Source: a virus. Taken from it: a stretch of 64,000 nucleotides of DNA. The notes under the pieces are model-generated. The model was not told the DNA's origin and made no database searches. It saw only the letters and a program-made list of their open reading frames with translations. Both the position numbers and the translations under genes were made by a program. Where the stretch lies: positions 73,365 through 137,364 of IMG/VR virus record IMGVR_UViG_3300046787_000316; one strand, written 5' to 3'. Positions 77-63,280 of the stretch are shown piece by piece. The stretch's first letter is position 1; the number at the start of each line of letters is the position of its first letter.

Positions 77-713
77 AATTTATGTAACAAAATCTATTAT
101 AATTTTTAACTTTTTCAACTGCGTGAAATGGATTGTGTTTTGTAAAATCTAATATAGCAACATTTCCAAAAATAGGTTTAACTATATTTGTATGTTCTAT
201 TATTAACTCACCACCATTACCCTCAATATAATTGTGGGTTAGATATATTAATATAACACAATTTGGCTTGTTTTCAGAATACGATGCATCTTGATGATTA
301 ATTAAGTAGCAGCCATCGTTATACATAGTTAGTTGTGATGAACCTTTGAATTCCGAATCGTAGAATGTTTTAAATATAGTTTCAGCCAATTTAGCCGATT
401 CATTTATATATTTAGGATAATCGAAGTACCAAATTTGGTCAACTGAATTATCCACACCATTGGTATAATTTTCTAATATATCATTCTTAATGATTTCCAA
501 CTCATCAAATGGTGCATCTAATATAGATGATTTGTATGGCGATTTCTTATTCAATTCTATAATAGAATTTCTCAAATTACGAAAAGATGAAGGTTTCAAT
601 GTTTCAATTGGAAACAATTTTTCTAATTTAAGAAATAAATCGTTATTTAATTCACTTAAATGAAATGAAACGTATCCTTTATTGAATAATTCGTTTTTTA
701 AAACAGATTCCAT
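69..713 (-). CDS. 2OG-Fe(II) oxygenase family protein
   Basis: HxD (INHQD), LIYL..GGEL strand, distal His (PFHAV) and 2OG-binding Arg (NRF). Confidence 0.8.
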   Translation of the reverse strand: MESVLKNELFNKGYVSFHLSELNNDLFLKLEKLFPIETLKPSSFRNLRNSIIELNKKSPYKSSILDAPFDELEIIKNDILENYTNGVDNSVDQIWYFDYPKYINESAKLAETIFKTFYDSEFKGSSQLTMYNDGCYLINHQDASYSENKPNCVILIYLTHNYIEGNGGELIIEHTNIVKPIFGNVAILDFTKHNPFHAVEKVKNYNRFCYINFC

Positions 714-5097: not shown

Positions 5098-5698
5098 AAT
5101 GTGGGAATTTTGATTTATAGTTGTAATATATTACATCCGATGGTATTTCTCTTTTTGTATTCCAAGTTGCTTCCGTTGGTGTATAAGTTGAAACATTATT
5201 ATCTTCTACTACGAAATATAAAGGTAAGTCAAAGTTTTTAGCATACTTATGTACTTCATAAAATATACCACTTTCAAAACTCATATCACCTACAAAACAC
5301 CAAACTTTTTCATCACTACCACTATCTTTTAAAGATTTGGCAACACCCAATGCAATTGAAAGAGTTCCACCAACAATTGCCGATGAATATAATTTTTCAT
5401 CCGAATTGCATAATGTGATTGATTTTCCTTTAAGGATTTCATCTTCAATCCAAATTGGACAAACACCTTTAAGTAATGCATGATAATGCGAACGCCAAGT
5501 TGAAAACACCCAATCGGTTGATTTTATTCTTTTGAATATTTCAATCAATTGCTCTTCATTTCCTTCCGATAAATGAATGGGGCCCCTAATCTTTGCATCT
5601 TCCCAATGCTTCACAATCATTTCTTCAAAATTGATTAAATCTTCCGAAGTGTATTCCACATCATTTACAATTGGATACTTATCGATATTCTGTATCAT
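5069..5698 (-). CDS. ThDP-dependent enzyme, E1-alpha-like subunit (short form)
   Basis: GPIHLSEGNE, STWRSHYHAL, ThDP motif GDMSFESG...VEDNN. Confidence 0.85.
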   Translation of the reverse strand: MIQNIDKYPIVNDVEYTSEDLINFEEMIVKHWEDAKIRGPIHLSEGNEEQLIEIFKRIKSTDWVFSTWRSHYHALLKGVCPIWIEDEILKGKSITLCNSDEKLYSSAIVGGTLSIALGVAKSLKDSGSDEKVWCFVGDMSFESGIFYEVHKYAKNFDLPLYFVVEDNNVSTYTPTEATWNTKREIPSDVIYYNYKSKFPHYGTGKWIAF

Positions 5699-6447
5699 AT
5701 TAGTTTTATTTCAGTTAACTTATTATATATTCGCTGTGCTACTTCCTTATGCCCTTCGATGGATAAATGTGGGTCTGGCACTGGACAATTTGGTATATCC
5801 ATTATTCTCATTTCATTATTACTAGCCCATGCTCCCAAATTATCACCATCAAATTTTATAAAATTATTTGCTTCATTAAATTGAGTTGGATTACCATCAT
5901 ACGAAAGCCATAATGTATCTATACCTTTTGATTTTAACCATAAATCATACATCTCAATATCTCTAATTAAATTATTCACAACATCGGTTTCATTGTAAAT
6001 ATATGATAAGTAATTAGTATAGTACTCATGTAATGGTTTGTATGCGTAGTTTCCTAAAAATGGTGGTTCTGAAAATTCAGTTCTATTTAATTTTATAAAC
6101 TCATTTGTAAAATCATAATAAACGTGCTGTCTAGTAAACATTGTCAACTGTCCTATCATTAAAACACGTTGAGTTGGTTTTGGATTTGAAAAGTATTTAT
6201 AAATTTTTCTAAAAATCAAATCATTAGATGACATCGATTCGGCAGTATTTATAAACTTACATCCGAATAAATTAGCCAAATATACTATGTAATTATTATC
6301 TTTTTTAAATTTTATAGTATCAGGATGCATGAACCCAATACTATCATCATTTATATTATTTATAAATTTATAAACGTTTGGATTATCCAGTCCACCACCT
6401 TCGGTAAAACTACAACCAAATCCTACTATTAAATCGTATTGCTTCAT
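5695..6447 (-). CDS. SGNH/GDSL-fold protein
   Basis: GFGCSFTEGGG, SSNDLI, C-terminal DPHLSIEGH. Confidence 0.6.
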   Translation of the reverse strand: MKQYDLIVGFGCSFTEGGGLDNPNVYKFINNINDDSIGFMHPDTIKFKKDNNYIVYLANLFGCKFINTAESMSSNDLIFRKIYKYFSNPKPTQRVLMIGQLTMFTRQHVYYDFTNEFIKLNRTEFSEPPFLGNYAYKPLHEYYTNYLSYIYNETDVVNNLIRDIEMYDLWLKSKGIDTLWLSYDGNPTQFNEANNFIKFDGDNLGAWASNNEMRIMDIPNCPVPDPHLSIEGHKEVAQRIYNKLTEIKLI

Positions 6448-6989
6448 CTATCTCTTTTTTGTAATATGGGATTGGTGGTAGGCCATTCCATTTGATATTC
6501 CGGGTCGTTCCATTTAATTACACCTTGCTCATTTGCATCTATATATTCTCCATTGTAAAATAAATTGTAATGAAACATACAATCGGTAAGTGCATAGTGA
6601 CCATTTGCAAACCCAGGAGGAACTAATACCTGTTGCCTGTTACGTTCGGATATGATAAATGATTCCCAATCCCCAAAGGTAGGCGAACCTTCTCTTACAT
6701 CCAAAACAATGAGGTATATTTCCCCAACAACGGCTTGGACTAACTTCCAAGTTTTAGTATCATAGTGTAATCCTCGTAATACGTTTTTGTAGGAACGAGA
6801 GAATCTACCGTGAATACTAATTTCTGATTTATCATAGTGAATATGATTCATTACTGGATGTTCCTCACTATGAAATGTAGTAAATATTTCACCCCTATAT
6901 TCTCTGTAAATAGATGGGGTAAAAATAGGTACTTCGTACTCAAATATTTTTGATGGAGTTTCTATAAACTCATTCCATTTATTACTCAT
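6444..6989 (-). CDS. rmlC: dTDP-4-dehydrorhamnose 3,5-epimerase
   Basis: NVLRGLHY, KLVQAVVGEI..IVLDVREGSPTFG, VPPGFANG, GVIKWNDP. Confidence 0.92.
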   Translation of the reverse strand: MSNKWNEFIETPSKIFEYEVPIFTPSIYREYRGEIFTTFHSEEHPVMNHIHYDKSEISIHGRFSRSYKNVLRGLHYDTKTWKLVQAVVGEIYLIVLDVREGSPTFGDWESFIISERNRQQVLVPPGFANGHYALTDCMFHYNLFYNGEYIDANEQGVIKWNDPEYQMEWPTTNPILQKRDR

Positions 6990-6990
6990 A

Positions 6991-7962
6991 CTATGTATTT
7001 TTTGCGTATCCTAATGGGAATCCGTTTCTAAACTCTGCTCCCATCTTAGGAACAATCATTTGGTAGGCTTGAATTAATTCAGTTATACCCTTATCCAAAT
7101 TCCAATGTGCTCTCCATCCAGTCGCTTCTATTTTAGCGTTCGATACAATGTAATCTCTTTTATCAGGGTCCTCATAAAAGTCGTTGTATGATACCGCAAA
7201 ATCCTTTACATGAGATTGTATCTTTTCTAATAACTCTTGCTTTGATAAATTGGCAGAACTTAATCCTACGTTAAATACTTCACCTTTGTAAGTATCATAT
7301 CTATCTAACATAAACATAAACACATTTGCTACATCCCTAATATGAATAAAGTTTCGTTTGAAATTCTTTTCAAATACAACAATGTATTTATCGGTAATTG
7401 CTTTGTAAACAAAATCGTTTACTAATAAGTCGGTTCTCATTCTTGGCGATACACCAAACACAGTTGCTAATCGGAATATAATAGCATCTGTTTCTTTTAA
7501 TAATAAATTTTCAGCTTCGCACTTTGTTTTACCATAAACTGAAATAGGGTTTAGTGGTGATTCTTCCGTACATTCCGTTTGTCCTTCGCCTATTCCATAT
7601 CCACTATTAGTATTTGGATATAATATTTTTTTACCAGTCCCCTTTGTGAATCTAACAATATTTTCAATTTGTGTATAATTTACATCCAATGCCAACTGCG
7701 GGTCGGCATCGCAAGCAGGGAATCCTACAATAGCTGCTAATGGAATAATAGCATCCGCTTCATTACAACACTTTTCCAATAATGTCGTATTACGGACATC
7801 TCCATAAATGAATTTGAATTTAGTTGTAAATGTATATTGTAATAACGATGTTTGATTGAATAATAATTTATCCAAAACAGTCACATGGTGTCCTTCATCT
7901 AATAACCTACCAACTATAACCGAGCCTAAGTATCCAGCTCCTCCTGTTATCAATACTTTCAT
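6991..7962 (-). CDS. NAD-dependent nucleotide-sugar epimerase/dehydratase (extended SDR)
   Basis: ITGGAGYLGS, LAAIVG, catalytic YGKTK, FRLATVFG, RNFIHIRDV. Confidence 0.9.
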   Translation of the reverse strand: MKVLITGGAGYLGSVIVGRLLDEGHHVTVLDKLLFNQTSLLQYTFTTKFKFIYGDVRNTTLLEKCCNEADAIIPLAAIVGFPACDADPQLALDVNYTQIENIVRFTKGTGKKILYPNTNSGYGIGEGQTECTEESPLNPISVYGKTKCEAENLLLKETDAIIFRLATVFGVSPRMRTDLLVNDFVYKAITDKYIVVFEKNFKRNFIHIRDVANVFMFMLDRYDTYKGEVFNVGLSSANLSKQELLEKIQSHVKDFAVSYNDFYEDPDKRDYIVSNAKIEATGWRAHWNLDKGITELIQAYQMIVPKMGAEFRNGFPLGYAKNT

Positions 7963-7963
7963 A

Positions 7964-8698
7964 TTATAATTTTTCTAAATCTTTACAAAATTTCATTAAG
8001 TGGTTGTTGTTACCTGTCATGTCCCAAAACTTATAATCAGTTTCGTTTTCAAAATTAAAACAACATAATAATCCTAACTCACTTTTATCAACTAATTGAA
8101 ATCCATGTTTATTTTTAGTTACAAGATTTGGTAAGTTTTTTCTGAAATCATTAACAACCGAGCCATCTAATTTTTTATTAGAAACTATAAAGAAATCACT
8201 ATAACATTCTTGCGACCAACTAAAATCTCCCTTAGTATCAGCTGAACCTATAAAGTATGGTGCGTTAACATAATCTCTTAACTTACCACCCAATGTTTCG
8301 GAATATACTAATTCATCATCAATCCATAATTCATAAGTAAACGTATCCCCATCCCAATTTAATGTAAATAAATGTGGTTCTGCCCAAAATTCTTCATCTT
8401 TATAGAACAAAATCTTATCGGCATATTTTTCTACCTCATCTTCCACATACCAAAAATTCAACATTAACATATCGGGTTTTCTATAAACGATTCCCGTATG
8501 TAATCCTCTTCTCATAAAGATTCCAGCCATATCATCTATTTTGGAATCATCTTCTCCTCGTTTCCAAGTTCCACTAATAGTCCAACTTGATTCATTCATT
8601 ACATAAAAAGCAGATGTATCAATAATCCCATAGGCGTTATGTGGCCACCAAGGCAAATCTGCTAATATCAATGGTTCTTTGTGTTTTATTTTGTACAT
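7964..8698 (-). CDS. LamG/concanavalin A-like lectin domain protein
   Basis: Beta-rich, ELWIDDELV, FIGS, ends WDMTGNNNH, the LamG-type D.SGN.NH signature also seen in the neighbouring GT7 fusions. Confidence 0.55.
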   Translation of the reverse strand: MYKIKHKEPLILADLPWWPHNAYGIIDTSAFYVMNESSWTISGTWKRGEDDSKIDDMAGIFMRRGLHTGIVYRKPDMLMLNFWYVEDEVEKYADKILFYKDEEFWAEPHLFTLNWDGDTFTYELWIDDELVYSETLGGKLRDYVNAPYFIGSADTKGDFSWSQECYSDFFIVSNKKLDGSVVNDFRKNLPNLVTKNKHGFQLVDKSELGLLCCFNFENETDYKFWDMTGNNNHLMKFCKDLEKL

Positions 8699-10098
8699 TA
8701 TAACTGTATTTCTTTTGTGAAATTATAAAATTCTTCTAATTCTGGGAATGTTTTACAAAAATCCGTTCCTCTTCTTTTGTCGTGTTCACTAAAGAATTTG
8801 TGGAAATTATATCTAGCTTTATGCAACTCCCCATTATCAATTGGAGATATCGACCAATCGTATGTTCTTTTCAATTTTTGTATTTCTAAATCGGAATACC
8901 CAACGTATCCTTTTGAATAATATGGAATCCCATAATAAAATGCTAATTGAGCTTGGTCAAATATATTTTGCTTAAATTGATGTGGTAGGATTTGTACCGT
9001 TTGATGACGAGGATGTCTTAGATATGATGTATCTAATAATACAGGCGATAACCAATATCTATCATCTCCAGCATACTCTCTCTTCAAATCATACACTCCT
9101 TTAATTAATTTATCAAAACTGAATACTGATAACATATTGTATGTTACCATAAATGTAATAGTGATTCTCGGAACTTCTCTTAAAATTCTATTTACATTAT
9201 TCCAAAAACGATTAAACTCTAATCCGTTACGGATATATTCAGCTTGCTCTCCCCAACCATCACACGAAGTAAATAACACAAATCCCTTTACTTTATCTTC
9301 TTCTGTAATTCTTTTTAATTTTTCGATTAATTTAGTTATAAGCTCATCGCTAACTCCTAAATTGGAATTGATTGAGAAATCTAAATTTTTATTAGGATTT
9401 GGTTCATCAATTATATAATCCAAAACTTTCCAAGTATCCTTTGATAACAATGGCTCTCCACCAGTTATTCTAAAAGTATGCAAATCTCTATACAAATCCG
9501 GCCACCATTTCCAAAATGCTTCTACATAAGGATTATGTTCTCTATGTGGAATTGGCATCTTTTGTTCAGCTGCAAGATGTTTTAAATCATTGAAATTATC
9601 AGTTGTATTATACCCACCATGTTGCTGAATCTCTTCCATCCATTTAGATGAAAAAGTAGGTGAACAATATGAACAAGCAAAATTACAAATGTTTGAGAAT
9701 GCAACCTCTACATATCTTGGATTAAAATCATCTCTCCAATTTGAATTTTTAATGGTTTCGAAATCAGGCCAAGACCAATCTTCGGATGATTTGAAAATTC
9801 TATCCGAATATAAATCCGAATTATCCTCAACTCCCCAACAATAATCACATTCCGTTGGCCTCGCACCGGACATCATTTCTTTTCTTTTCTGCTTCTTAAA
9901 TAAAGTATTATGAAGTGCAGATGGGTTTCTAGCAATCTCTGCTTCGGATACTTTGTGAGTATTAGGGTGGTGACAACTATGATTGTGACCGGTGTGTAAG
10001 TGAGTTGTAACTTGCGTCCATTTCGCTAAACACATTCCTTTACCAATGCCATCTAATGAATTTTTTACTTCTTCGTAAAGTGGTTTTTTATACGCCAT
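8698..10098 (-). CDS. Radical SAM protein with N-terminal twitch/SPASM-like domain
   Basis: CNFACSYC (CxxxCxxC), ITGGEPLL; N-terminal CLAKW...SCHH...ECDYCW. Confidence 0.9.
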   Translation of the reverse strand: MAYKKPLYEEVKNSLDGIGKGMCLAKWTQVTTHLHTGHNHSCHHPNTHKVSEAEIARNPSALHNTLFKKQKRKEMMSGARPTECDYCWGVEDNSDLYSDRIFKSSEDWSWPDFETIKNSNWRDDFNPRYVEVAFSNICNFACSYCSPTFSSKWMEEIQQHGGYNTTDNFNDLKHLAAEQKMPIPHREHNPYVEAFWKWWPDLYRDLHTFRITGGEPLLSKDTWKVLDYIIDEPNPNKNLDFSINSNLGVSDELITKLIEKLKRITEEDKVKGFVLFTSCDGWGEQAEYIRNGLEFNRFWNNVNRILREVPRITITFMVTYNMLSVFSFDKLIKGVYDLKREYAGDDRYWLSPVLLDTSYLRHPRHQTVQILPHQFKQNIFDQAQLAFYYGIPYYSKGYVGYSDLEIQKLKRTYDWSISPIDNGELHKARYNFHKFFSEHDKRRGTDFCKTFPELEEFYNFTKEIQL

Positions 10099-10100
10099 AA

Positions 10101-11510
10101 CTATGCTTTAACATTTATAAGTTTGTGTTTATTATATATAGTATCGATTGATATTAATTCGTATTTCATTGAGTTAATACCATCCGATTTGTAATCAATT
10201 TTACCCTGCTGCATTTGTAATATATATCGTCTTTCATTTCTTGCAGTAGTTTCTCCCTTTGCCCATTTATCAATTCCCCCAACATTAATTAATCCTTCGG
10301 TTTGATGTGGTAAGCATCTGAATTTACCATCCCTTCTATATGGTAAGACTGTATTTGGTACTGAAATAGTTTGATTTATAATTTCTACATTATCCATTTC
10401 CAATTCATCCATTGGTTGGGAGAAATCCAAATCAAATACTAAATTATCAGTAGGCTGTATTTTATGTAAGTTTTGTATTTCATCTGCTGATAAACATCTA
10501 TCCCACATTTTTATTTCGGAAATATAACCTTTGAAAAATTCTTCATTTGGTGATTTAGAATATCCAATTTGAAATTTATCCATCCCATAACGTTTCAATG
10601 GTTCATTATAAATTAATGGCGAATATGTACCAGTCCCCAATCTTGCATCACTTTCTTTACCATTTAGATAAAAATGAATTTGTTTTAATTCGGAATCAAC
10701 TGCCATTGTCACCCAACTCCATTGATTTTCATAACGTTTAATCCATTGATATAAATGAGTCTTAACTCTATCCCATAACATAGCAGTATAAGCTCTACTA
10801 TTATTAAATGATATTCCCCAATCGTATCCAGGTTTTCTGAATATTGGGTACTCTATAAATTGTCTTTCGGAATCTCCAATTAACCATATAGGAACTTTTT
10901 CAATTTGTTGGTCAGCTTTTACTAAAATAGAAACGGTATGTGATTGTGAAATACAATCTTTCATTTCTCTGCTAGGCCTGTATAATGCTTTGGAATTCAA
11001 TCCATTAAAGTATCCAACTAATTTATCTTTATCAAAATCCAATTGATTTCGTTGTGCATACCCTTCCATCACACATCTCCAAAATAAATCATCATCCTCC
11101 ATTCCCCAATCCCAATAATCATTTGAATATCCATTAGTACGTTCTACTTGTTCTTTGGAAAATACAACTGCTCCACCAAAATACTCCTCATATTTTAATT
11201 GGTAATCCGATTGTGAAATTCTAACGGCAATGTGTTGTGGGTTATCAGTTGGAAATGAATAATCGCAACTATCATCTTCCGGCACCATATCAATATCATG
11301 CCAAACGATGTAATCACATCCATCATCAAATGCATGTTTAGCTGCAATGTTTTTCATTAAACCTCTATTAAAAAGTTTATCATCACATTGATGTGCTAAA
11401 TAAATGGTATGTTCAATTCCTTTTGAATCTAAAAAAGCAGATACAATTGGAATGAATTGATTCATGTGTTCTTCTCGGTTTCTATATGGTACACATACTC
11501 CTAATTTCAT
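10101..11510 (-). CDS. GT7 (beta-1,4-galactosyltransferase-like) with inserted LamG domain
   Basis: VPYRNR, FNRGLMKN, HDIDM (DxD), YFGGA, NGYSNDYWDWGMEDDDL; LamG strands; C-terminal GKFRCLPH...DGINSMKY. Confidence 0.85.
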   Translation of the reverse strand: MKLGVCVPYRNREEHMNQFIPIVSAFLDSKGIEHTIYLAHQCDDKLFNRGLMKNIAAKHAFDDGCDYIVWHDIDMVPEDDSCDYSFPTDNPQHIAVRISQSDYQLKYEEYFGGAVVFSKEQVERTNGYSNDYWDWGMEDDDLFWRCVMEGYAQRNQLDFDKDKLVGYFNGLNSKALYRPSREMKDCISQSHTVSILVKADQQIEKVPIWLIGDSERQFIEYPIFRKPGYDWGISFNNSRAYTAMLWDRVKTHLYQWIKRYENQWSWVTMAVDSELKQIHFYLNGKESDARLGTGTYSPLIYNEPLKRYGMDKFQIGYSKSPNEEFFKGYISEIKMWDRCLSADEIQNLHKIQPTDNLVFDLDFSQPMDELEMDNVEIINQTISVPNTVLPYRRDGKFRCLPHQTEGLINVGGIDKWAKGETTARNERRYILQMQQGKIDYKSDGINSMKYELISIDTIYNKHKLINVKA

Positions 11511-12937
11511 TATATACCTACGTTTATAGTTCTTATATTACCATTGGTTTCAACACCATAGGTATGATATTTTAAAGTACTCAATCCATCGTTTTCCAAT
11601 AATGAATGATTACCATTTACTTCATTTACAAATCTTAACTGATTCCATCTAGTCGATTGGTCTTTCCAAGCATTTCCTACGAATCCATTCTCATCATGCT
11701 TCAATGATTTGAATAGTGATTTCCTACGATGTGGAATATAGAAATCTTCATAATCATCTACCAATTCTTTTACAATTTCACATTTATATATAATACCATC
11801 ATTATCATTGCCAGATAAATCAGTTAGTTTATAGTTTTCAATGTGGTTAGAATCATAATATGTTTTTAAATTATCAGCAGATTCATATTTTCCAAAATTC
11901 TCTGTTAATAGTTTAGTATTATTATTAGAAATATCATAAATCTCATCAGCTGATAATTGATTATCATAGTATGCGAAATATTCAATAGTTCCTTTAAACC
12001 AATTTGGAATAATTTCCCTATCAGGATTACCAACTCCTAAATAAAAGTATGGTTCTTTTCTATATCTAGCATTATATCTACGAATTGGTTCAGTTTCTCC
12101 AACTAACTCACCATCTTGATACATTTTAATTATAGTAGATGCTGAATCGTATGATAAAGTAATATTGGTTTTATACTTAGGTTTAATATCTGTATTAAGA
12201 TATATGGGTTTGAATTTACTATCAAATGTACAGAAGTTGTATCTATCAAATGACGTATATGATATAGCGAAATCGAAGCCAGGTATACTAAACGCAGTAA
12301 ATTCATCTGATTGTTTGTTATGATTTAAAATTAAATTATTAGGTCTGAAACATATCGATATAGTAAAGTCATTATTCAAATCAATAACATTTTTGGATTT
12401 AACATAAGCATTATCGCCATTAAATCTTAAAACATTATTATTGTAACCTACGTTTTTTAATTCTATTTTATTTAATTCAACTGAATGATACTTACATCTC
12501 AACAATAAGTCATCATCTTCATATCCCCATCCCCAGTACTTATTAGAATAACCATCAATCTGCTCAAAGATATCCATTGGAAATAACGTAACACCGCCAA
12601 AGTATGTATCAAATACAACTCGTTCCTTCTCACCTTCACTTAATTCAAAATTAGTAGATAAATGTAATGGGATATCCGAATAAGAATAATCTACATCAAT
12701 TGGTAGCATATCAACATCGTGGAATACTACATAATCACATCTAAGCTTTTTAGCTTGCTTAAATCCGATATTAAGTAGCATCCCACGATTAAAAAGTTTG
12801 GCATCGTCTTGGTGAACTATAATTAATTCAAATCGTATATTTTTAGTTCGTAAATAAGTTACAATTGATTGTTTAAATTGTTTCAAATGTAAATCACGAC
12901 CTCTATACGGCACAACTATGCCAACTTTCCTATCCAT
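11510..12937 (-). CDS. GT7 (beta-1,4-galactosyltransferase-like) with inserted LamG domain, paralog 2
   Basis: VPYRGR, FNRGMLLNIG, FHDVDMLP, YFGGV, GYSNKYWGWGYEDDDL; LamG (MYQDGELVG, DLSGNDNDG); C-terminal KSLKH...DGLSTLKY. Confidence 0.85.
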   Translation of the reverse strand: MDRKVGIVVPYRGRDLHLKQFKQSIVTYLRTKNIRFELIIVHQDDAKLFNRGMLLNIGFKQAKKLRCDYVVFHDVDMLPIDVDYSYSDIPLHLSTNFELSEGEKERVVFDTYFGGVTLFPMDIFEQIDGYSNKYWGWGYEDDDLLLRCKYHSVELNKIELKNVGYNNNVLRFNGDNAYVKSKNVIDLNNDFTISICFRPNNLILNHNKQSDEFTAFSIPGFDFAISYTSFDRYNFCTFDSKFKPIYLNTDIKPKYKTNITLSYDSASTIIKMYQDGELVGETEPIRRYNARYRKEPYFYLGVGNPDREIIPNWFKGTIEYFAYYDNQLSADEIYDISNNNTKLLTENFGKYESADNLKTYYDSNHIENYKLTDLSGNDNDGIIYKCEIVKELVDDYEDFYIPHRRKSLFKSLKHDENGFVGNAWKDQSTRWNQLRFVNEVNGNHSLLENDGLSTLKYHTYGVETNGNIRTINVGI

Positions 12938-42545: not shown

Positions 42546-43322
42546 TTATATTATGTTCTTCTTTACTATATAATTATAAAGTTCTTCACTTATTAGTTTA
42601 TATCCTTCTTTATTTGGATGTTGAGTTGCCCTCGTCTTAAATGTTGCGTCTTGATGTTCCCATATATCCAACCGTTTGGTTTTATTTAAAAAATCTCTAA
42701 ACGTTTCTTTATCAAATCCCCAATATGTTGATTTATTTATCGTATGTCTAACATCATCTTTTTTATGCAAATCAATCAGCATAGATTCTATACCATCACA
42801 CATAACATATTTTATACCATAATAATTAAATAGTTGTTGTAAAAATGTTATATAGTTCTGATTAACAATGTTGTAATAATTTTGATTAAATAATTCAGCA
42901 ATAAAGAAGTTCTTATAATTTATAAGAAAATCATTATAATCTTCATTATTACTTCTAAATGAATTTACAAATTTCTCTGGAGTTTCTATTAAGTGTTTAA
43001 CAGACCAACTAACCCACTCACCTTTTGGTAAAAATGGAACGTAATCCCTCAAAGATGAACTCCACATTATAACAACCAAATCACCTGTTCTAATTCTACC
43101 ATCTTGTACATCTGTAACAGTCTGATTGAATATCTTATTATTGGCATTTCCACTAACACCATTGTTGTGTAATGAAATACCTAATTTATTAGATAATTGA
43201 GTTGGCCATGATAATGAGTTTCTAAATAATCTCTTATCATCTCTATCGGTTAATGTACTTTCAACTGAAATATCAGCGCCTTCTCCTTCTGTCCAACTAC
43301 ATCCGTATGTGTGTAATATCAT
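42546..43322 (-). CDS. SGNH/GDSL-fold protein
   Basis: YGCSWTEG, NNGVSGNAN, QHPNKEGY. Confidence 0.65.
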   Translation of the reverse strand: MILHTYGCSWTEGEGADISVESTLTDRDDKRLFRNSLSWPTQLSNKLGISLHNNGVSGNANNKIFNQTVTDVQDGRIRTGDLVVIMWSSSLRDYVPFLPKGEWVSWSVKHLIETPEKFVNSFRSNNEDYNDFLINYKNFFIAELFNQNYYNIVNQNYITFLQQLFNYYGIKYVMCDGIESMLIDLHKKDDVRHTINKSTYWGFDKETFRDFLNKTKRLDIWEHQDATFKTRATQHPNKEGYKLISEELYNYIVKKNII

Positions 43323-50092: not shown

Positions 50093-50659
50093 TTAGATTA
50101 TTGTTTTTTTAGATATATCCATTGCATATTTTTCACCCCTTGGAAATGATACATCATCTAAATTATCAATTGAAATGTAATTTTGAAGTAATTTAAACCC
50201 ATCCCCATAATATAAACTTTCGTAAGTAATTTTGAAATAGTTTGGATTATTAATGAAATCATTAGTAATACCATTTGTTACTCTATCGAATTGCTGTATT
50301 ATTTCCAAATCATCTACTATGGTATTTGAATCATACTTCCATGCGTTATTCCACTTACCCGTCAACATAGCATTATTAAATGATAGTAATTGCTCTCGTT
50401 TGTTCTCTCTATATAATACGATTATCTTATCCGAAATGGATAATAATTTAGAATAGTCTATATCATATTGATATATTTCTTTTACGAATAAATGTTCAGT
50501 ATCGTATTTCCATTGAGTTGGGCACACGCCATTCTTAAACCACTTTAAAGTTGAATTAGTAATAGGTTCGTATAATGTTGTGAATTTGGTTTGATTATAA
50601 AACCAATTAGCTAAATTAGTAGAGCCGCTTCTTGGTTCAGCAATCACTGTAATGACCAT
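50093..50659 (-). CDS. PAPS-dependent sulfotransferase-like protein
   Basis: 5'-PSB AEPRSGSTNL, LYEP, 3'-PB LYRENKREQLLS, ITYESL. Confidence 0.75.
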   Translation of the reverse strand: MVITVIAEPRSGSTNLANWFYNQTKFTTLYEPITNSTLKWFKNGVCPTQWKYDTEHLFVKEIYQYDIDYSKLLSISDKIIVLYRENKREQLLSFNNAMLTGKWNNAWKYDSNTIVDDLEIIQQFDRVTNGITNDFINNPNYFKITYESLYYGDGFKLLQNYISIDNLDDVSFPRGEKYAMDISKKTII

Positions 50660-50663
50660 AATA

Positions 50664-50771
50664 CTATGTGTGCTTAACTTTTATTAAGTTAATTACAGTT
50701 TGTATCATTGCTAAACATTTTTCTTTTTGTGTAATTGTTAGTGGTTTAACCACTTTAACTATATTTCCCAT
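50664..50771 (-). CDS. 35-aa basic peptide, not in the ORF track
   Basis: MGNIVKVVKPLTITQKEKCLAMIQTVINLIKVKHT; fills the gap with 7-nt and 4-nt spacing to its neighbours. Confidence 0.65.
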   Translation of the reverse strand: MGNIVKVVKPLTITQKEKCLAMIQTVINLIKVKHT

Positions 50772-50778
50772 ATATTAA

Positions 50779-52164
50779 TTATTTTTGATTTGGGCAATAA
50801 TTGTGAATTACCAAGGTATTTAAAATCTCATTGGAATTAGTCCCAGCTATAAATACATCGGATGGTTCTATATCTATCGTTGTTATTGAACCTGTGAAGT
50901 ATTCATTATCAATAGATGTAATAGTGGATGTAATATCCGATGAGTTAAAAATGGTATCGCCTTCTACTAAATCAATTACATTTTTAAACTTCACTACGCC
51001 ATCAACGTTTACCAATAACATTTTTCCCGTTGGTAATAATGAATATCCGACATTATCCCCATTTGTATATGTAATTTTATTCAACCAATCTTCAGTCGGT
51101 TTATGTATAATACTAACTACCGATGCGCTGGTATATGATATAAGTGATTCAACACTTCCTGTATATTCCCATTCAAATGTCTGCTGTCTATTGAAATCAT
51201 ATCCAAGTGTATCTATTAATAGTGCTTTAACATTATCACCAATTTGAATATCAGCCGCAGCTGTTTCGATAAAACTTCCATCTTCCTGCATCACATCAAT
51301 TTTATAATCGGATGGGATACCTTCATCAGATACTCTGTTTGGATTTGAAAAAAACATATATCTTGATTTGTTGTTTAATTTCAAATCAGTATATTCGATA
51401 ATTGTTTCATCCAATGGTATTTGATTAGAATGCAAATATCCACCCAAATCTATAATTTCCGAAAGTTGGTTTGTTATGAGATACCACTGCCTAATGTGAG
51501 TAGTTATTGAACCACTTTCTATATTAGTTGGAGAAAATTTATATTCTTGCAAAAACAAACCAGTATTCAAATTTGACTTAACGGATTCAAGTTCATCCAA
51601 AGTATCTACCTTTATAAATTCGGGATACATTGATTTATCAAAATCAGGTAATTGTTTTTTAGAAATTAAATTAGGTATTTCGCCATTATCGTTTATAGAT
51701 GTAAGAGTATCTAAAACTTCACCATTGTAAGTAGTAAATGTTTTTGGAAGTATGCTTCCCGAACCACCTTCAAATAATAAATTTATTAATTCATTTTTAT
51801 CTCTACAATATGTATCATCTAATATTGCTTGCGCATTATATGCAAACCTTAAATTTAATGTAGAACTATCATCCGTATAAGAAGGTATTGTTACTCCATT
51901 AGCTGGGATTATAATTTCATCAAATATAACATTATTTAATGTACATTTTTCTTTTATAATATCGACAACAAATTTAGATACAAATTGAGATTTATATATA
52001 ATACGAAGAGTTGAGAACTCATTCGATACTATATAGTTAAAAAGACCATCGAAATCAAAATAAGAACTCTTAGCATAAGACAGATTAATATCTGTATTCA
52101 TTTCTAAAAGTAAAATATCTTCATCGGTTGTAATGAAGTCAACACCTAATAATACACTGTTCAT
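50779..52164 (-). CDS. Circularly permuted ATP-grasp ligase fused to a C-terminal Hint domain
   Basis: N-terminal GVDF...LLEMNT, then RDK..L..LL, LPKT, PNLISK, LQEY, HIRQWY; Hint from G282 (GIPSDYKI...IQIGDNVKA...TIDIEPSDVFIAG...VIHN) then YCPNQK. Confidence 0.7.
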   Translation of the reverse strand: MNSVLLGVDFITTDEDILLLEMNTDINLSYAKSSYFDFDGLFNYIVSNEFSTLRIIYKSQFVSKFVVDIIKEKCTLNNVIFDEIIIPANGVTIPSYTDDSSTLNLRFAYNAQAILDDTYCRDKNELINLLFEGGSGSILPKTFTTYNGEVLDTLTSINDNGEIPNLISKKQLPDFDKSMYPEFIKVDTLDELESVKSNLNTGLFLQEYKFSPTNIESGSITTHIRQWYLITNQLSEIIDLGGYLHSNQIPLDETIIEYTDLKLNNKSRYMFFSNPNRVSDEGIPSDYKIDVMQEDGSFIETAAADIQIGDNVKALLIDTLGYDFNRQQTFEWEYTGSVESLISYTSASVVSIIHKPTEDWLNKITYTNGDNVGYSLLPTGKMLLVNVDGVVKFKNVIDLVEGDTIFNSSDITSTITSIDNEYFTGSITTIDIEPSDVFIAGTNSNEILNTLVIHNYCPNQK

Positions 52165-52217
52165 AATTGTAAATCTATATAGTATATATATCTCTAAAAA
52201 ATAAAAATATCAAAGGA

Positions 52218-52811
52218 TTACATCAATACCTTACTATCTTTTCTGTATTTTTTGGATGGATTCATATATTCAAATGCATCGTTATAATTCAAACCGCATC
52301 CGATACTTTCAAATGTATTTTTTGCTAATTCAAAATTTGTAGAGTATAAATCCTCATACCATATCATCGGCAAGTTGGTTATTTTTTGAAAATGAATAAT
52401 TAAATCAATATATTGATTGACGGTATCCATATATTCGATATCCATTACCGATGGGTTATGTATATATGTTCCATGCCATACTGTGAATCCATCGTAATAT
52501 CCATTTCGCTCTATAATTTCTTTACACTTCGATATACCATTACACTCACTTTCCCAACTAGCAATTCTATCACGTCTACTTATTAATATAGTTTTATCAA
52601 ATGTTTTAGAAAATTCCCACAACTCTTCAATACTATTGTGTTGATTTATTAATGTTTTTAAAACAACATTTTTTTGATATGGGTTATATAGATTATATGA
52701 CGCATTTGGATTGAATGGTTCTATTATTTGTTTTAAATTTAGTGTAGAAGCAATTGCATTGGTTAATGTAGTTGTCCCACTTCTAGCAGTGCCGATTATT
52801 AGTATTTTCAT
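52218..52811 (-). CDS. PAPS-dependent sulfotransferase-like protein
   Basis: GTARSGTTTL, IEPFN, ISRRDRIASWES, IWYEDL. Confidence 0.75.
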   Translation of the reverse strand: MKILIIGTARSGTTTLTNAIASTLNLKQIIEPFNPNASYNLYNPYQKNVVLKTLINQHNSIEELWEFSKTFDKTILISRRDRIASWESECNGISKCKEIIERNGYYDGFTVWHGTYIHNPSVMDIEYMDTVNQYIDLIIHFQKITNLPMIWYEDLYSTNFELAKNTFESIGCGLNYNDAFEYMNPSKKYRKDSKVLM

Positions 52812-53284
52812 ATTATACTCCTTGTAATAACTTCGCCATAAAACTTATTTATCATTTCAACATCATTATAATGTTTTATGGAATTACTATCGCCATTCTT
52901 TATCAATTCACTCTTATTATAATGTATATCGGATAGTTTCGCCATTCGTATCTCACAATCACCCATATCAATTAAATCGTATGTTTGATTATCTACCAAA
53001 TAGAATGCGCCAAATTTGTTATTCTTTTTGAACCAATATGTTTTATTTATAAGTCCAAATTTCTGCTCCCCTATAAATGTAAAATTATAATGATTCTGTA
53101 AAATTTCAAAATATTTAATATCGGATGTATTTAATGCTAGATTTAGATTACCAACATTTCTAGCTATTATATTGTGATAACGTAATACGGATGAACCGCC
53201 TAATATTATATTTCCATCTGTTAAATTATGAAAATCGTTAAATATAATATTATTAAAATCACTAGTGAAGTTCAGTTGTATCAT
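52808..53284 (-). CDS. Pol-beta-type nucleotidyltransferase-fold protein, apparently degenerate
   Basis: ILGGSSVL..H..IARNVGNLNL (DxD position reads NxN), C-terminal K...KH.ND. Confidence 0.45.
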   Translation of the reverse strand: MIQLNFTSDFNNIIFNDFHNLTDGNIILGGSSVLRYHNIIARNVGNLNLALNTSDIKYFEILQNHYNFTFIGEQKFGLINKTYWFKKNNKFGAFYLVDNQTYDLIDMGDCEIRMAKLSDIHYNKSELIKNGDSNSIKHYNDVEMINKFYGEVITRSII

Positions 53285-53285
53285 A

Positions 53286-53507
53286 TTATTTTATTGTATT
53301 CTTTCGTAATCCGTATTTAATCCACTTATACCAAATTCGTTCGTGAATATAATATTGAATCGGCTTATATACCAATTCTGCAATACCAAACGCAGTTCCA
53401 ACTTTAATTGAACCACTTATCCACCACATTAAGATAAACCCTATCAAGGTACTTAAAATACGATATGATATGGTTTTGGCTATATGTCTTTTTCTCGTAA
53501 CTATCAT
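53286..53507 (-). CDS. DUF2061-like membrane protein
   Basis: RHIAKTISYRILSTL, IAELVYK..QYYIHERIW..IKYG. Confidence 0.8.
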   Translation of the reverse strand: MIVTRKRHIAKTISYRILSTLIGFILMWWISGSIKVGTAFGIAELVYKPIQYYIHERIWYKWIKYGLRKNTIK

Positions 53508-54013
53508 ATTAATCCAATTTGATTATTTGAAATATTTTTTCTATATCGTTCATTTGAATTTTTATCAAAGATATCCTCGTAATATGTTATTGGGATATTT
53601 AATGTATTACTAAGAACAAGCAATTCGGAATCCCAACGAATGATATCGACTTCGTATTTCTCTACATTTGGTGGAGTTTTCCATACATAATGTTTTAATG
53701 AATTGAAATTTTTATGATTGTGATGCTGGAGATATGCCCAGCTTTCCGAACACTCTTTTAAATCTCGTCTACTTAAAAGTATGACTTTATCAAATTCCTT
53801 AACTAATTCAATATATGCATCAATCGCCGTATCAAACCCATTAGGACAATGATACATCATAGTTTTAACAACAACATCAGTTGGGAGAATACCATACCTA
53901 TATCGTTTTGGGTCAAATGGTTCAAATATAAATGGTATCCGATATTCTTCACTATACCGACTCATTAATGAAGTTGAGCCGGTTCTCGGAAGAGCTATTA
54001 TTAATATTCTCAT
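53504..54013 (-). CDS. PAPS-dependent sulfotransferase-like protein
   Basis: ALPRTGSTSL, FEPFDP, LSRRDLKECSES, TYYEDI. Confidence 0.75.
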   Translation of the reverse strand: MRILIIALPRTGSTSLMSRYSEEYRIPFIFEPFDPKRYRYGILPTDVVVKTMMYHCPNGFDTAIDAYIELVKEFDKVILLSRRDLKECSESWAYLQHHNHKNFNSLKHYVWKTPPNVEKYEVDIIRWDSELLVLSNTLNIPITYYEDIFDKNSNERYRKNISNNQIGLI

Positions 54014-54393
54014 TATCCTTTAGTTTCATCATAAGTAATAGTGCCATCCGGCATCATGTGACCTGTTCTAATAGCAGTTCCGCTTATCTGTGCAACATCG
54101 GTTGGCGGTTCGTGGTAGATAACATCATACCCCACACCTCTTCCATAATTGATTGATTCAATATCGGGAATAATTGATAATAATACCTTATCCCAATTAT
54201 TCATAAAGAATGGTTCGTTCATTAGTTCTATCATAACTTGGTGAGCAGTTTTCGGATTATTCCCATCAACCTCCACATCTCTAATTGCAACCCAAACATA
54301 CTTTCCCTTTTCCAATTGTTGGTTAATCAGCCATTCGTGTCCTTTATGCCAATTTTGCCAACGTCCTACATACATTGCGTACTTTTTACTCAT
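54013..54393 (-). CDS. Minimal HxGH (cytidylyltransferase-like) nucleotidyltransferase
   Basis: GRWQNWHKGH, VAIRD, IPDIESINYGRGVGY, ISGTAIR. Confidence 0.8.
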   Translation of the reverse strand: MSKKYAMYVGRWQNWHKGHEWLINQQLEKGKYVWVAIRDVEVDGNNPKTAHQVMIELMNEPFFMNNWDKVLLSIIPDIESINYGRGVGYDVIYHEPPTDVAQISGTAIRTGHMMPDGTITYDETKG

Positions 54394-54399
54394 TGTTTT

Positions 54400-55347
54400 T
54401 TAATTTAATTTATCAATAATTTTGGTGAGTTCATCATTAAATCCATTTCTGATTATCATTTGTTTCCATTGGTCTACTTTAAATAATCTAAATTCTTCGT
54501 TATTATTAACTACACTCTTATCTAACCAAATATGGTCGAACCCAACCGGCTTTTCATTGTGTGTTTGTGGAATATCAATCCATTGTGGGAGATATCCTAC
54601 ACCATCCACCATCCCATCGTAAAATTGTACGTGAGTTTTGTTATGAAATGTAGTAACTTTACTATTCAAGCTCCTCATAGTATAACCTAATATGTTTTGG
54701 TCCGACATTAACCACAGCCAATCCGGTACTTGTTCGTATTTTTTTGTAACAATTTCTAAATGTAACTTCAAATACTCTTCCAACACTTCCGAATTGTTTA
54801 TAAATAAAAACGAAGTATTAGGTATTAGCATCCTACTATCAAACGTTGGAATGTTTAACCCCATACCATCTATCATATATTGCTCTATATGTAAGAAACT
54901 TCTCGGTAATTCCCAATGTGTATGAACTACATCATAATCGAATACCCATTTTGGAAAATCATCTTGAATGATTAAATCCAAATCCATAAATAAAAATGGT
55001 GGTTCTTCCTTACAAATTGATATAATCTTGCCACTTGTCCAAAATTGAGCTGGGTTTACATCATATTCCTCATTTAAGGTTTCCAATGTGTTAGTATCTA
55101 CCTCATCAAATAATTCAAGCAGTCCTACTTTCTCATAGTATTTCTTACCTATCTCATCGGTTACCAATTTAATAGGGAATCCAGTCCTTACTTTAGCACT
55201 TGTTATCGCAGCCATCTGCATAATGATTTCGTAATCAGGCAAAAAGTAATCATCTCCATTATATTCAAATGTAGAATATTTCTTATATCCTGCGAAATTC
55301 TTTCTCTCAAAGAATGGTTTAGTCCAATTTACAAATATTACTTTCAT
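54400..55347 (-). CDS. GT-A-like protein (DUF6734-like)
   Basis: KLVTDEIG, FWTSGKI, PFLFMDLDL, IPNTSFL. Confidence 0.55.
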   Translation of the reverse strand: MKVIFVNWTKPFFERKNFAGYKKYSTFEYNGDDYFLPDYEIIMQMAAITSAKVRTGFPIKLVTDEIGKKYYEKVGLLELFDEVDTNTLETLNEEYDVNPAQFWTSGKIISICKEEPPFLFMDLDLIIQDDFPKWVFDYDVVHTHWELPRSFLHIEQYMIDGMGLNIPTFDSRMLIPNTSFLFINNSEVLEEYLKLHLEIVTKKYEQVPDWLWLMSDQNILGYTMRSLNSKVTTFHNKTHVQFYDGMVDGVGYLPQWIDIPQTHNEKPVGFDHIWLDKSVVNNNEEFRLFKVDQWKQMIIRNGFNDELTKIIDKLN

Positions 55348-56129
55348 TCGTGTATAAAATATATGTCTTTTTTTAATCTATTAGTAGTGTATTCATTTAG
55401 TATAACTTGCTTACCCATCATTTCTAAATCATCTTTACCCAAACAAACCAATGGTTCTATTGTATCCATATATTGTTCTGCTGAATCGATGTAGTTGTTA
55501 AAATGTAGTAATGCACACACCTCTTCAATATTGGTGGTGATTCCGTGAGTTTTTTGAATTTCAATTAATTGTTTTGGAAATTTCTTATCTCTTAAATAAA
55601 TAAAACCGGCATTTGGAATTACAATACCATTATCAAATTTCCATTTACCATTTCGTATTATCTGATAAAAGAACATATTGAAATAATGCGTAGTATCATC
55701 TGATTTTGGATTGATTGTTTGGAATTGATTAAGTATTTCGGCTGGATAAAGATATAGAGGTATTTGTATATCACCTCTACTTCTTAGCATATTGTAAAAC
55801 TTATCATCCAATGGTTTCTGTATAAAACAATCCCAATCTAAGAAAAGGATTTCATCATACAATTCCATTGCTCTTTCGATTGCAAGTAGTTTATGATAAA
55901 AATTAAAATCTCTATTGAATTTTAAACTTGGTCCCATATAATGATATGGATACCCCAACTTCTCCATTAATTCACAATTAACTTCATCCCATACTATAAC
56001 CATTTGGTTGGTGAGATTGTGTTTATCATCAATTAGTTTTGCTTCATAGCATTCGGAATGGTATGAGTTCAAATCTTTTTCAAAGAATTGATGTTCGGGT
56101 TTACCCCATAAGCATCTTATGATTTTCAT
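55344..56129 (-). CDS. GT-A-like DxD protein (paralog of 15813-16541)
   Basis: HKL...EILFLDWDC, IPLY, VIPNAGFIYL, IEE, IYFIH. Confidence 0.5.
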   Translation of the reverse strand: MKIIRCLWGKPEHQFFEKDLNSYHSECYEAKLIDDKHNLTNQMVIVWDEVNCELMEKLGYPYHYMGPSLKFNRDFNFYHKLLAIERAMELYDEILFLDWDCFIQKPLDDKFYNMLRSRGDIQIPLYLYPAEILNQFQTINPKSDDTTHYFNMFFYQIIRNGKWKFDNGIVIPNAGFIYLRDKKFPKQLIEIQKTHGITTNIEEVCALLHFNNYIDSAEQYMDTIEPLVCLGKDDLEMMGKQVILNEYTTNRLKKDIYFIHE

Positions 56130-56362
56130 AAGCCCTCCACTTTATTCCATTTTTTTAAATCACAACTACCCATAACATCGGTGAATATCTTTTTACCAAT
56201 AGGGCAACCGCATTCTCCACATTTTTTACCAAACACTACCGAATCTATCATCGAATCGCATCCACTGCATATCTGTAAACGTTTCCTTGCAAGTTCGGAT
56301 TGTTGAGGTGTAGGATTTTCTGCTATCCACCATGCTTTTATTATAGTGGCTATACTACTCAT
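56126..56362 (-). CDS. Small Cys-rich zinc-binding protein (DUF6171-like)
   Basis: RLQICSGC...KCGECGC...K.....CDLKKW. Confidence 0.7.
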   Translation of the reverse strand: MSSIATIIKAWWIAENPTPQQSELARKRLQICSGCDSMIDSVVFGKKCGECGCPIGKKIFTDVMGSCDLKKWNKVEGL

Positions 56363-56661
56363 AATGTTTTTTTGATGTTTAATACTCTAGCACATAGTTC
56401 ATACATTTCTAACCCAACGGCTTGTGAATGAATAAAATCTAATAAGTGAGTATATTGTTCCCTCTTAATAGTAACATAAGCAGGTATATCTTTAAATCTG
56501 AATATAATCAGTTCCTTTGCTGTCCTATTGTTTTTGAAAGTATCAATCATATCAACGACTGTTGTCATGTGAGGCTCGGTTAATGGGAATTTATGAATGT
56601 AATCAACCCAATCCAATTGGATATAACTCTTTTCTAACTTAGGTAACGCTTTGAGGTTCAT
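56359..56661 (-). CDS. Hypothetical protein, first gene of the operon
   Basis: 100-aa ORF downstream of the promoter at 56687, ATGA-coupled to the next gene. Confidence 0.6.
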   Translation of the reverse strand: MNLKALPKLEKSYIQLDWVDYIHKFPLTEPHMTTVVDMIDTFKNNRTAKELIIFRFKDIPAYVTIKREQYTHLLDFIHSQAVGLEMYELCARVLNIKKTL

Positions 56662-56686
56662 TGTGTAACGGATATAATTTAATAGA

Positions 56687-56718
56687 CAAATATACTAATA
56701 ATTATTGGAATTTCCAAA
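56687..56718 (-). promoter_or_regulatory. Bacteroidota-type sigma70 promoter (TTTG-N20-TATATTTG)
   Basis: Plus caaatata 56687-56694 and caaa 56715-56718. Confidence 0.85.
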
Positions 56719-63208: not shown

Positions 63209-63280
63209 AGCGGCGGTGTGGATTCGAACCACCTCCTCCTATCTGGAATGATAGGCGTGCAACCATTACACTTCCACCGC
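63209..63280 (-). tRNA. tRNA-Gly(UCC)-like gene, atypical (8-nt anticodon loop, A8, G49-A65 mismatch)
   Basis: GCGGTGG/CCGCCGC acceptor, GTGT/GCAC D stem, CCTAT-CATTCCAG-ATAGG, GTGG-TTCGAAT-CCAC T arm, U73; no encoded CCA. Confidence 0.8.

Follow-up and report, generated by a model that had tools for sequence, protein, structure and literature searches.

A run of 12 open reading frames (ORFs) was analysed in the last 64 kb of a linear 137-kb IMG/VR virus record (IMGVR_UViG_3300046787_000316), whose completeness is estimated at 73%; this whole 64-kb stretch is here called the window, and positions refer to it. The run lies on the minus strand between 56661 and 50093. It includes the gene for a 461-aa protein in which a predicted ATP-grasp ligase is joined to a predicted Hint domain, a 35-aa micro-ORF directly after it, a small Cys-rich protein and three small sulfotransferases. 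We hold with moderate confidence that the locus is one copy of a conserved phage module for peptide ligation and tailoring. Comparison of related loci showed that the conserved core consists of the ligase-Hint gene, the micro-ORF and the Cys-rich protein. The sulfotransferases, and a gene pair encoding a nucleotidyltransferase and a DUF2061 protein, are frequent accessories; a fixed 12-gene operon is not what is conserved. The substrates of the module, the order of its steps, the site of sulfation and its biological role, as given below, are those that we infer.

The ligase-Hint protein

The ligase-Hint gene occupies 50779-52164, and its 461-aa product matched no Pfam, PHROG or NCBIfam family. 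Aquatic metagenomes yielded at least 139 full-length relatives (about 460 aa), and an exhaustive profile search with the ligase-Hint family returned 242 clusters (50% identity) at E <= 1e-30. The AlphaFold 2 (AF2) model of the protein, made with 36 sequences, has a predicted local distance difference test (pLDDT) score of 83.5 and shows two domains. Residues 1-276 (51337-52164) resembled Escherichia coli glutathionylspermidine synthetase 2io7 (VIA Z 9.2, 213 residues aligned, root-mean-square deviation (rmsd) 4.5) as well as YgiC 7uka and the glutathione-synthetase-like protein 5oeu (VIA Z 9.0 for both); a Foldseek search found YgiC 7uk8 (E 3e-6), and the E-64 ligase Cp1B and glutathione synthetases were also among the structural matches. 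The unpermuted ATP-grasps RimK, LysX/ArgX and DcsG aligned in VIA solely from residue 49-51 on, and the strands with D9 and E21-x-N23, which normally close the ATP-grasp fold, stand at the N-terminus of the 461-aa protein. Together these observations confirm the circular permutation, and at the level of the model residues 1-276 are confirmed as a circularly permuted ATP-grasp ligase of the glutathionylspermidine-synthetase/YgiC clade.

In 30 sequences, the most distant at 25% identity, D9, E21, N23, R106, the DDxYCR motif, K169, R225 and N455 are invariant. By the VIA offset, D9, E21 and N23, the putative metal ligands, fall on Asp318, Glu330 and Asn332 of 2io7, and Asp9 falls near D141 of Cp1B. 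In Cp1B, D141, E163 and N165 are required for activity, and YgiC and YjfC have been named peptidylpolyamine synthetases (PMC12568646). The invariance of D9, E21, N23, R106, DDxYCR, K169 and R225 argues for an active enzyme, and judged by these residues the ATP-grasp half is apparently active as a peptide-type carboxylate-amine ligase.

The second half of the protein, residues 279-455 (50800-51330), matched Hint domains of the intein and bacterial intein-like (BIL) type in both structure and profile. In VIA the closest entry was a Clostridium BIL domain (2lwy; Z 15.4, 136 of 138 residues, rmsd 2.0), followed by the KlbA intein (2jnq; Z 15.1) and Tetrahymena BUBL BIL2 (6tmm; Z 14.6), with 27 further intein/Hint entries above Z 9. 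A profile match to the KlbA intein was obtained at E 2e-4. The permuted ATP-grasp-Hint architecture, called from the letters alone in an earlier note on this DNA, is thus borne out by the AF2 model, the VIA alignments and the profile matches.

The residues that define a splicing intein were absent from the Hint half. Intein position 1, a Cys, Ser or Thr nucleophile in splicing inteins, is Gly282, which is invariant in the marine clade; the position is non-nucleophilic in the other clades too, and the block-B position reads L-P-T-G-K, lacking the conserved Thr or His of the TxxH block. Asn455 is followed by Tyr in this protein and by Y, F, R, P, K or other residues in relatives, where splicing would call for Cys, Ser or Thr. 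Asn455, as noted above, is invariant, His454 is present in at least 90% of relatives (Tyr in one clade), and a tail of at least two residues always follows the terminal Asn, as expected of a C-terminally cleaving Hint. With Gly at position 1 and no TxxH block, the domain would lack an N-terminal (thio)ester and the ability to splice; with His-Asn retained for Asn cyclisation, it could only cut off what follows Asn455. At the level of the model, the Hint half is a predicted cleavage-only domain, built to cut after Asn455.

What follows Asn455 is the tail YCPNQK (50782-50799), six residues that carry the single conserved Lys of the family. Short tails (2-7 aa) contain exactly one Lys in 52 of 52 distinct sequences. 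The tail varies widely among relatives: the shortest have two residues (FK, YK), others are Cys-rich peptides of 27-67 residues, and at the far end the Asn is followed by a second Hint domain or by cargo with BACON domains. In the Cys-rich tails that were sampled we counted 6, 8 or 10 Cys and never fewer than one Lys. Retention of the Lys even in two-residue tails makes it very likely that this residue is a reactant or a recognition element.

Some relatives extend the protein further. In four loci (L015, L017, L018 and L020; for example L015:8001-9854) a short linker with Cys connects the first Hint to a second, complete Hint-like domain that ends in ...ANG[IV]LV[YH]D, and two of them (L015 and L017) have a 69-aa hydrophobic ORF at the position usually held by the micro-ORF. 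Three distant members, P0234 and P0240 (1232 and 1667 aa) and P0153 (649 aa), carry large cargo beyond the Hint; two contain BACON domains, and one weakly matches the endosialidase-chaperone domain (Peptidase_S74). Such large and divergent cargo suggests that the Hint may release very different products in different phages. Elsewhere in the same record, outside the window (G000:C1:32200-32616), there is a weak match to Hint residues 300-441 (E 6e-4, 25% identity) within a 579-aa open frame, which may encode another Hint-containing protein.

The micro-ORF, the sulfotransferases and the conserved neighbourhood

Conservation of the locus was followed in two sets: 71 loci anchored on the ligase (set 1) and 66 further loci found through the 188-aa sulfotransferase subfamily (set 2). 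The most constant feature was the micro-ORF. In the window it encodes a 35-aa peptide (P0121; 50664-50771), starting 7 nt after the ligase-Hint stop and ending 4 nt before the next gene. In 68 of the 71 loci, down to 25% ligase identity, the ligase gene is directly followed by an ORF of 24-38 aa. The peptides form one alignable family with an amphipathic centre and a C-terminal [H/N]-[S/T/A], which reads K-H-S/T in the marine clade and x-N-S or N-A elsewhere; in an alignment of 29 of them one Ile is the sole invariant column. The median pairwise ratio of nonsynonymous to synonymous substitution (dN/dS) in four clades is 0.16-0.54. Judged by this conservation, the 35-aa peptide listed in the earlier note is the product of a real conserved gene, and the micro-ORF is the ligase's most constant companion.

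Two roles for the micro-ORF were considered and rejected. Its length and its splice-junction-like end would fit the C-terminal half of a split intein; this idea was dropped because the Hint in the 461-aa protein is already complete (136 of the 138 residues of 2lwy). Graspetide-type chemistry was dropped because the 29 aligned peptides have no suitable core, that is, no repeated Thr/Ser...Asp/Glu.

Three proteins of the run, of 169 aa (53504-54013), 197 aa (52218-52811) and 188 aa (50093-50659; PRSGST loop, R...S motif and YE(D/E)L), were aligned with 37 relatives. This 40-member alignment, A2, shows a YE(D/E)L element, an R...S pair that never varies and a PRxGS[T/S] loop from which the Walker-A Lys is missing. 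In the loop R9 and G11 are invariant, and its PRxGSTS consensus aligns to the 5'-phosphosulfate loop of NodH and of the CurM sulfotransferase; R78 and S87, likewise invariant, align to the R...S pair with which NodH binds the 3'-phosphate. The best PDB matches of the A2 profile were NodH (E 5e-3) and the CurM sulfotransferase (E 1e-2), then a bile-salt sulfotransferase, and Sulfotransfer_3 was weakly matched by 14 of the 40 members (best E 1.7e-4). The AF2 model of the 197-aa protein (pLDDT 88.9) aligned over residues 1-194 with Stf0 (1tex; VIA Z 11.2), an olefin-synthase sulfotransferase (4gox; 10.4) and SULT1B1 (9.9). Tyrosylprotein sulfotransferases (5wri, 3ap3) scored Z 9.3-9.5, and nucleotide kinases reached Z 9.6 over the core alone (to residue 173). 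At the level of fold and motif, these data confirm the earlier note's naming of the three proteins as sulfotransferases and place them as divergent, shortened Stf0/NodH-like enzymes. Searched against the whole 137-kb record, the A2 profile gave three matches in all, flanking the ligase gene, and none in the phage's sugar cluster (see below).

The Cys-rich protein (78 aa, CxxC...CxxCxC; 56126-56362) matches PHROG 13558 (E 4e-7) and proved to be a recurrent partner, with homologues in 57 of the 71 ligase-anchored loci and in 42 of the 43 ligase-containing loci of set 2. Sulfotransferase-like genes were present in 40 of the 71 loci. In 34 of the 71, the HxGH nucleotidyltransferase and DUF2061 genes form an adjacent or overlapping pair, which shifts as a unit between positions in the island: gene order varies among loci, and the pair may lie directly upstream of the ligase or several genes off. 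The linkage was also found from the other side: the ligase gene is present in 43 of the 66 sulfotransferase-anchored loci, and, of the 24 loci whose 10-kb flanks are complete, 21 have it. Conservation of the neighbourhood had been proposed in the earlier note as a check on its interpretation. The neighbours proved to be conserved in homologous loci, and this check therefore does not refute that interpretation, which is partly supported.

In the window, the first member of the pair is a minimal HxGH nucleotidyltransferase of the cytidylyltransferase superfamily (126 aa; 54013-54393) with HxGH and ISGTxIR motifs. The call made for it earlier stands weakly, through these motifs and weak matches to nicotinamide mononucleotide (NMN) adenylyltransferases (NCBIfam E 1.6e-4; PDB 2qjo, E 6e-3). 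A sulfate-activating role for this protein was considered; its matches are those weak NMN adenylyltransferase ones, and the record has no adenosine 5'-phosphosulfate (APS) kinase. The DUF2061 protein, a small membrane protein of 73 aa (53286-53507), was recognised as before (Pfam PF09834, E 8e-15). DUF2061 also occurs in rhizobial nod loci beside nodH and nodPQ (bioRxiv 10.1101/2022.04.26.489235), a co-occurrence that hints at a link to sulfation.

Many proteins of the ligase loci share a C-terminal tag, approximately K-[T/S]-[L/I]-[I/L]. It ends 369 of 1151 ORFs and is found in at least 12 unrelated clusters, among them the sulfotransferases and the Cys-rich protein; among the same 1151 ORFs, it is absent from the ligase, nucleotidyltransferase and HD-phosphohydrolase clusters. 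The tag ends 24% of ORFs in loci with short tails (2-5 residues) versus 34% in loci with Cys-rich tails. In the window the 188-aa sulfotransferase ends in -KKTII. The sole strict copy outside the 12-gene run within the window is on a 258-aa protein (42546-43322, minus strand) that ends in -KKNII, has a weak DUF6071 match and is encoded beside a Nol-like carbamoyltransferase.

Proposed reaction scheme and alternatives

We propose that the ligase would convert the carboxylate of a peptide to an acyl phosphate, most plausibly at the conserved C-terminus of the micro-ORF product, and would join it to the epsilon-amine of the Lys in the tethered tail or to an alpha-amine freed by cleavage. The Hint step would then release the conjugate. 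The coupling of a peptide carboxylate to Lys is suggested by the parallel with relatives of the ligase that join a peptide carboxylate to a primary amine of a polyamine. The three mini-sulfotransferases, of the type that uses 3'-phosphoadenosine-5'-phosphosulfate (PAPS), would tailor the peptide or the conjugate with PAPS from the host, and the nucleotidyltransferase-like and DUF6734 proteins might also tailor one or the other. The product would in that case be a sulfated, possibly glycosylated peptide conjugate of the kind that the earlier note had envisaged, with the sulfotransferases acting on the peptide. Anti-defence, superinfection exclusion or virion decoration, the purposes that the same note gave as examples, are speculative. 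The glycosylation would depend on two proteins with DxD-like motifs, one of which has no homologue in the 71 ligase loci.

In its most explicit form, which we put forward tentatively and with low confidence, the C-terminus of the micro-peptide is coupled through an isopeptide bond to the single Lys of the Hint-tethered tail, the tagged enzymes (here three sulfotransferases) tailor it, and Asn cyclisation releases a branched sulfated peptide.

Several observations weigh against a peptide-ligation and tailoring module. The connection of the micro-ORF peptide, the tail Lys and the sulfotransferases to each other is one that we infer. The last 15 residues of the 461-aa model, tail included, have low confidence, and so has any placement of the tail at the active site. 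The micro-ORF peptide has neither the acidic nor the Thr/Ser repeat cores of known ATP-grasp-modified peptides. All related loci come from one broad lineage of large myoviruses, and part of the linkage could therefore be inherited synteny in a variable island. The C-terminal tag is weak in the window, with 3 strict matches among 73 ORFs (the 188-aa, 158-aa and 258-aa proteins). Pfam sulfotransferase matches all lie below curated cut-offs; of the window proteins one reaches 13.9 bits against a cut-off of 27 and two have no match. Finally, no PAPS-synthesis gene and no APS kinase were found in the record (about 73% complete), for which reason PAPS would have to come from the host.

The tethered tail could itself be the substrate, an arrangement to which we give a small chance. 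The tagged enzymes would dock on the ligase-Hint protein and modify the attached tail, the ATP-grasp would perform one ligation or cyclisation on it, the Hint would release it, and the micro-ORF peptide would act as cofactor, chaperone or regulator. The occurrence of the tag on many unrelated enzymes encoded beside the ligase gene is consistent with such docking, and the tails of 27-67 aa with 6, 8 or 10 Cys resemble a peptide product. However, loci with tails of 2-5 residues (FK, YKA) offer little to tailor and still retain tagged enzymes (24% versus 34% of ORFs), which favours the micro-ORF peptide over the tail as the common substrate. In addition, the strict tag is found on just two operon proteins in the window, and more loci have the micro-ORF than have a long tail.

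It is also improbable, in our judgement, that two separate functions share one variable island. The sulfotransferases, the DUF6734 protein, the HxGH nucleotidyltransferase and DUF2061 would then build or sulfate a glycan or small molecule, such as a sugar of the host envelope or the virion, and the ligase-Hint protein with the micro-ORF would do something separate. The phage indeed has a large nucleotide-sugar/glycosyltransferase cluster, and related loci are rich in sugar enzymes. The best structure matches of the sulfotransferase are carbohydrate and lipid enzymes such as Stf0, its best profile match is NodH, and the rhizobial company of DUF2061 described above points the same way. Against this, the record has its three sulfotransferase genes around the ligase gene and not beside the sugar cluster, their linkage to it is reciprocal and withstands both shuffling of gene order and divergence to 25% identity, and the sulfotransferases carry the C-terminal tag common to other enzymes of the ligase loci.

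Least probable, and in our view very unlikely, is that the 461-aa protein acts on small molecules, as a synthetase of polyamine or thiol conjugates would, with the Hint as an inert structural or regulatory appendage and the micro-ORF unrelated: the nearest solved structures do make small-molecule amides and the Hint lacks two of the four classical catalytic elements, but Asn455 is invariant and His454 nearly so, the tail of at least two residues with one Lys would be needless for an inert domain, long cargo (Cys-rich peptides, BACON domains, a second Hint) lies beyond the Asn in relatives, and the micro-ORF is retained in 68 of 71 loci.

Remaining genes, phage context and known systems

The other genes of the run are less often shared. 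The first encodes a 100-aa protein (56359-56661) with homologues in 11 of the 71 loci, usually beside the Cys-rich protein. Next to the Cys-rich gene lie those for a 261-aa protein (55344-56129), which matched nothing in Pfam, PHROG, NCBIfam or the PDB, and a 315-aa protein (54400-55347) of the DUF6734 family (Pfam E 1.7e-4, below the curated cut-off). No homologue of the 261-aa protein was found in the 71 ligase-anchored loci, and the 261-aa query was matched somewhere within the 66 sulfotransferase-anchored loci. The Atlas feature matches of the 315-aa protein are all to clusters of DUF6734, a family of unknown function, and its homologues occur in 3 of the 71 loci. Both proteins have DxD-like motifs, the one feature seen that fits their earlier label as GT-A-like, and neither had an informative PDB sequence match. 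The 158-aa protein (52808-53284; ending in -TRSII) has a Pol-beta-type nucleotidyltransferase fold, its Atlas structure model matching AbiEii and ANT(2'')-like nucleotidyltransferases at TM-scores of 0.66-0.71. It reads GGS...NLNL where G[GS]...DxD is expected, so that the acidic pair is replaced by N-L-N, in agreement with its description as a degenerate nucleotidyltransferase. Homologues were found in 8 of the 71 loci, usually just upstream of the ligase gene.

The 12 ORFs and their spacing are as the earlier note had described them. They form one co-directional run, with overlaps of 1-4 nt or gaps of 1-7 nt and a single exception, a 53-nt gap before the 461-aa gene. The 5' end of the run coincides with a strand switch, and in the divergent intergenic region there is a sigma-70-like hexamer pair (56689-56717, minus strand; 9 of 12 matches). 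This corresponds to the promoter placed earlier at 56687, a claim that fared less well: 52 sigma-70-like sites were found versus 56.8 expected in shuffled sequence, and the site is plausible as a promoter solely because the coding strand switches there. Counts of late-promoter motifs were not above chance either. At the other end no terminator bounds the run, and co-directional genes carry on below 50093, so the lower operon boundary at this position is arbitrary.

The phage is a large myovirus, and its baseplate wedge protein shares 39-42% identity with the counterparts in Microcystis phage Mel-JY01 and Flavobacterium phage immuto. About 40 kb from the sulfotransferases, at 698-12937 on the minus strand, the window contains the nucleotide-sugar/glycan cluster mentioned above. 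It holds two epimerase/dehydratases dependent on nicotinamide adenine dinucleotide (NAD), an E1-like protein dependent on thiamine pyrophosphate (TPP), a radical-SAM-like protein of 466 aa and a 469-aa protein in which a family-7 glycosyltransferase is fused to a concanavalin-A/laminin-G lectin domain; the three neighbouring ORFs of 466-475 aa in this cluster may be mutually related. ARAGORN found no tRNA in the whole window, 63209-63280 included.

Searches beyond the related metagenomic loci gave no precedent. The operon DNA, the ligase-Hint protein (of marine or freshwater type) and a sulfotransferase had no match in 50,697 deposited phage genomes, and a pattern scan of limited sensitivity found no relative in species-representative bacterial and archaeal genomes. 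Neither an account of an ATP-grasp joined to a Hint domain in phages nor a description of such a system came to light in the literature; the ATP-grasps mentioned in a survey of jumbo phages (PMC7824862) are of the R2K and RNA-ligase types only. This agrees with the earlier statement that no described system of this composition is known.

If the proposed scheme is right, the locus represents a widespread module with an undescribed enzyme logic, in which the acceptor of an ATP-driven ligase is attached to the enzyme by a tether that cuts itself, and the partners of the ligase are a universal micro-peptide and tagged tailoring enzymes that can replace one another. Such a route would have no counterpart among known ribosomal-peptide pathways or protein-tagging systems. 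Its products would form a new class of modified peptides encoded by viruses, whose targets might be hosts or competitors. The Hint fold would gain a new role as release device for the product of a ligase, and protein chemistry could obtain a compact tool for ligation and release. The marine variant, with its six-residue tail, 35-aa peptide and three small sulfotransferases, would be close to the most compact version for reconstitution in the laboratory.

Each domain of the locus belongs to a known superfamily, and the defining features of splicing inteins and of graspetide pathways are absent. Graspetide pathways of the microviridin type likewise place an ATP-grasp enzyme beside a short precursor-like ORF. 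In contrast to their precursors, the phage peptide has no Thr/Ser...Asp/Glu core, and a Hint fusion and a Lys-bearing tail are foreign to those pathways. No microviridin-type ligase was listed in either fold search of the 461-aa model, which is an absence only; the phage ligase is not of the graspetide type.

RaxX with its sulfotransferase RaxST, and the tyrosylprotein sulfotransferases, are systems of sulfated ribosomal peptides. The phage locus resembles RaxX/RaxST in having a small peptide gene beside a PAPS-type sulfotransferase, and its tail starts with Tyr. It differs in having three paralogous mini-enzymes of 169-197 aa instead of one and no peptidase-transporter; moreover, the tail Tyr is not conserved (F, P, R or V also stand first), and peptide sulfation is here a proposal.

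LysW with LysX/ArgX, and ribosomal protein S6 with RimK (3vpb, 5k2m, 4iwx), are cases in which an ATP-grasp acts on the C-terminus of a small protein encoded nearby, and the constant Cys-rich partner of the phage ligase is, like LysW, a small zinc-ribbon-like protein. However, the LysX, ArgX and RimK ligases are unpermuted and align to phage residues 49-276 only (Z 5.7-6.4), and the acidic C-terminal tail of LysW and S6 is missing from both the micro-ORF peptide and the Cys-rich protein.

The BIL domains and pretoxin-Hint (2lwy, 6tmm, PF07591) are like the phage Hint in processing rather than splicing, with variable C-terminal cargo freed by Asn cyclisation; the phage Hint differs by its Gly at position 1, its six-residue cargo and its N-terminal ATP-grasp partner. 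The ligase itself is closest to glutathionylspermidine synthetase, YgiC/YjfC and eukaryotic glutathione synthetase (2io7, 7uka, 7uk8, 5oeu, 2hgs). It shares 9-13% identity with this clade, has no amidase or other such partner domain, and unlike them is fused to a Hint, is followed by a micro-ORF and has so far been found in viral and metagenomic sequence only. The likeness lies in the fold, in the permuted order and in the N-terminal D...E-x-N strands for Mg/ATP, and enzymes of the glutathionylspermidine-synthetase clade couple a terminal carboxylate to a primary amine, the chemistry that we propose for the phage ligase.

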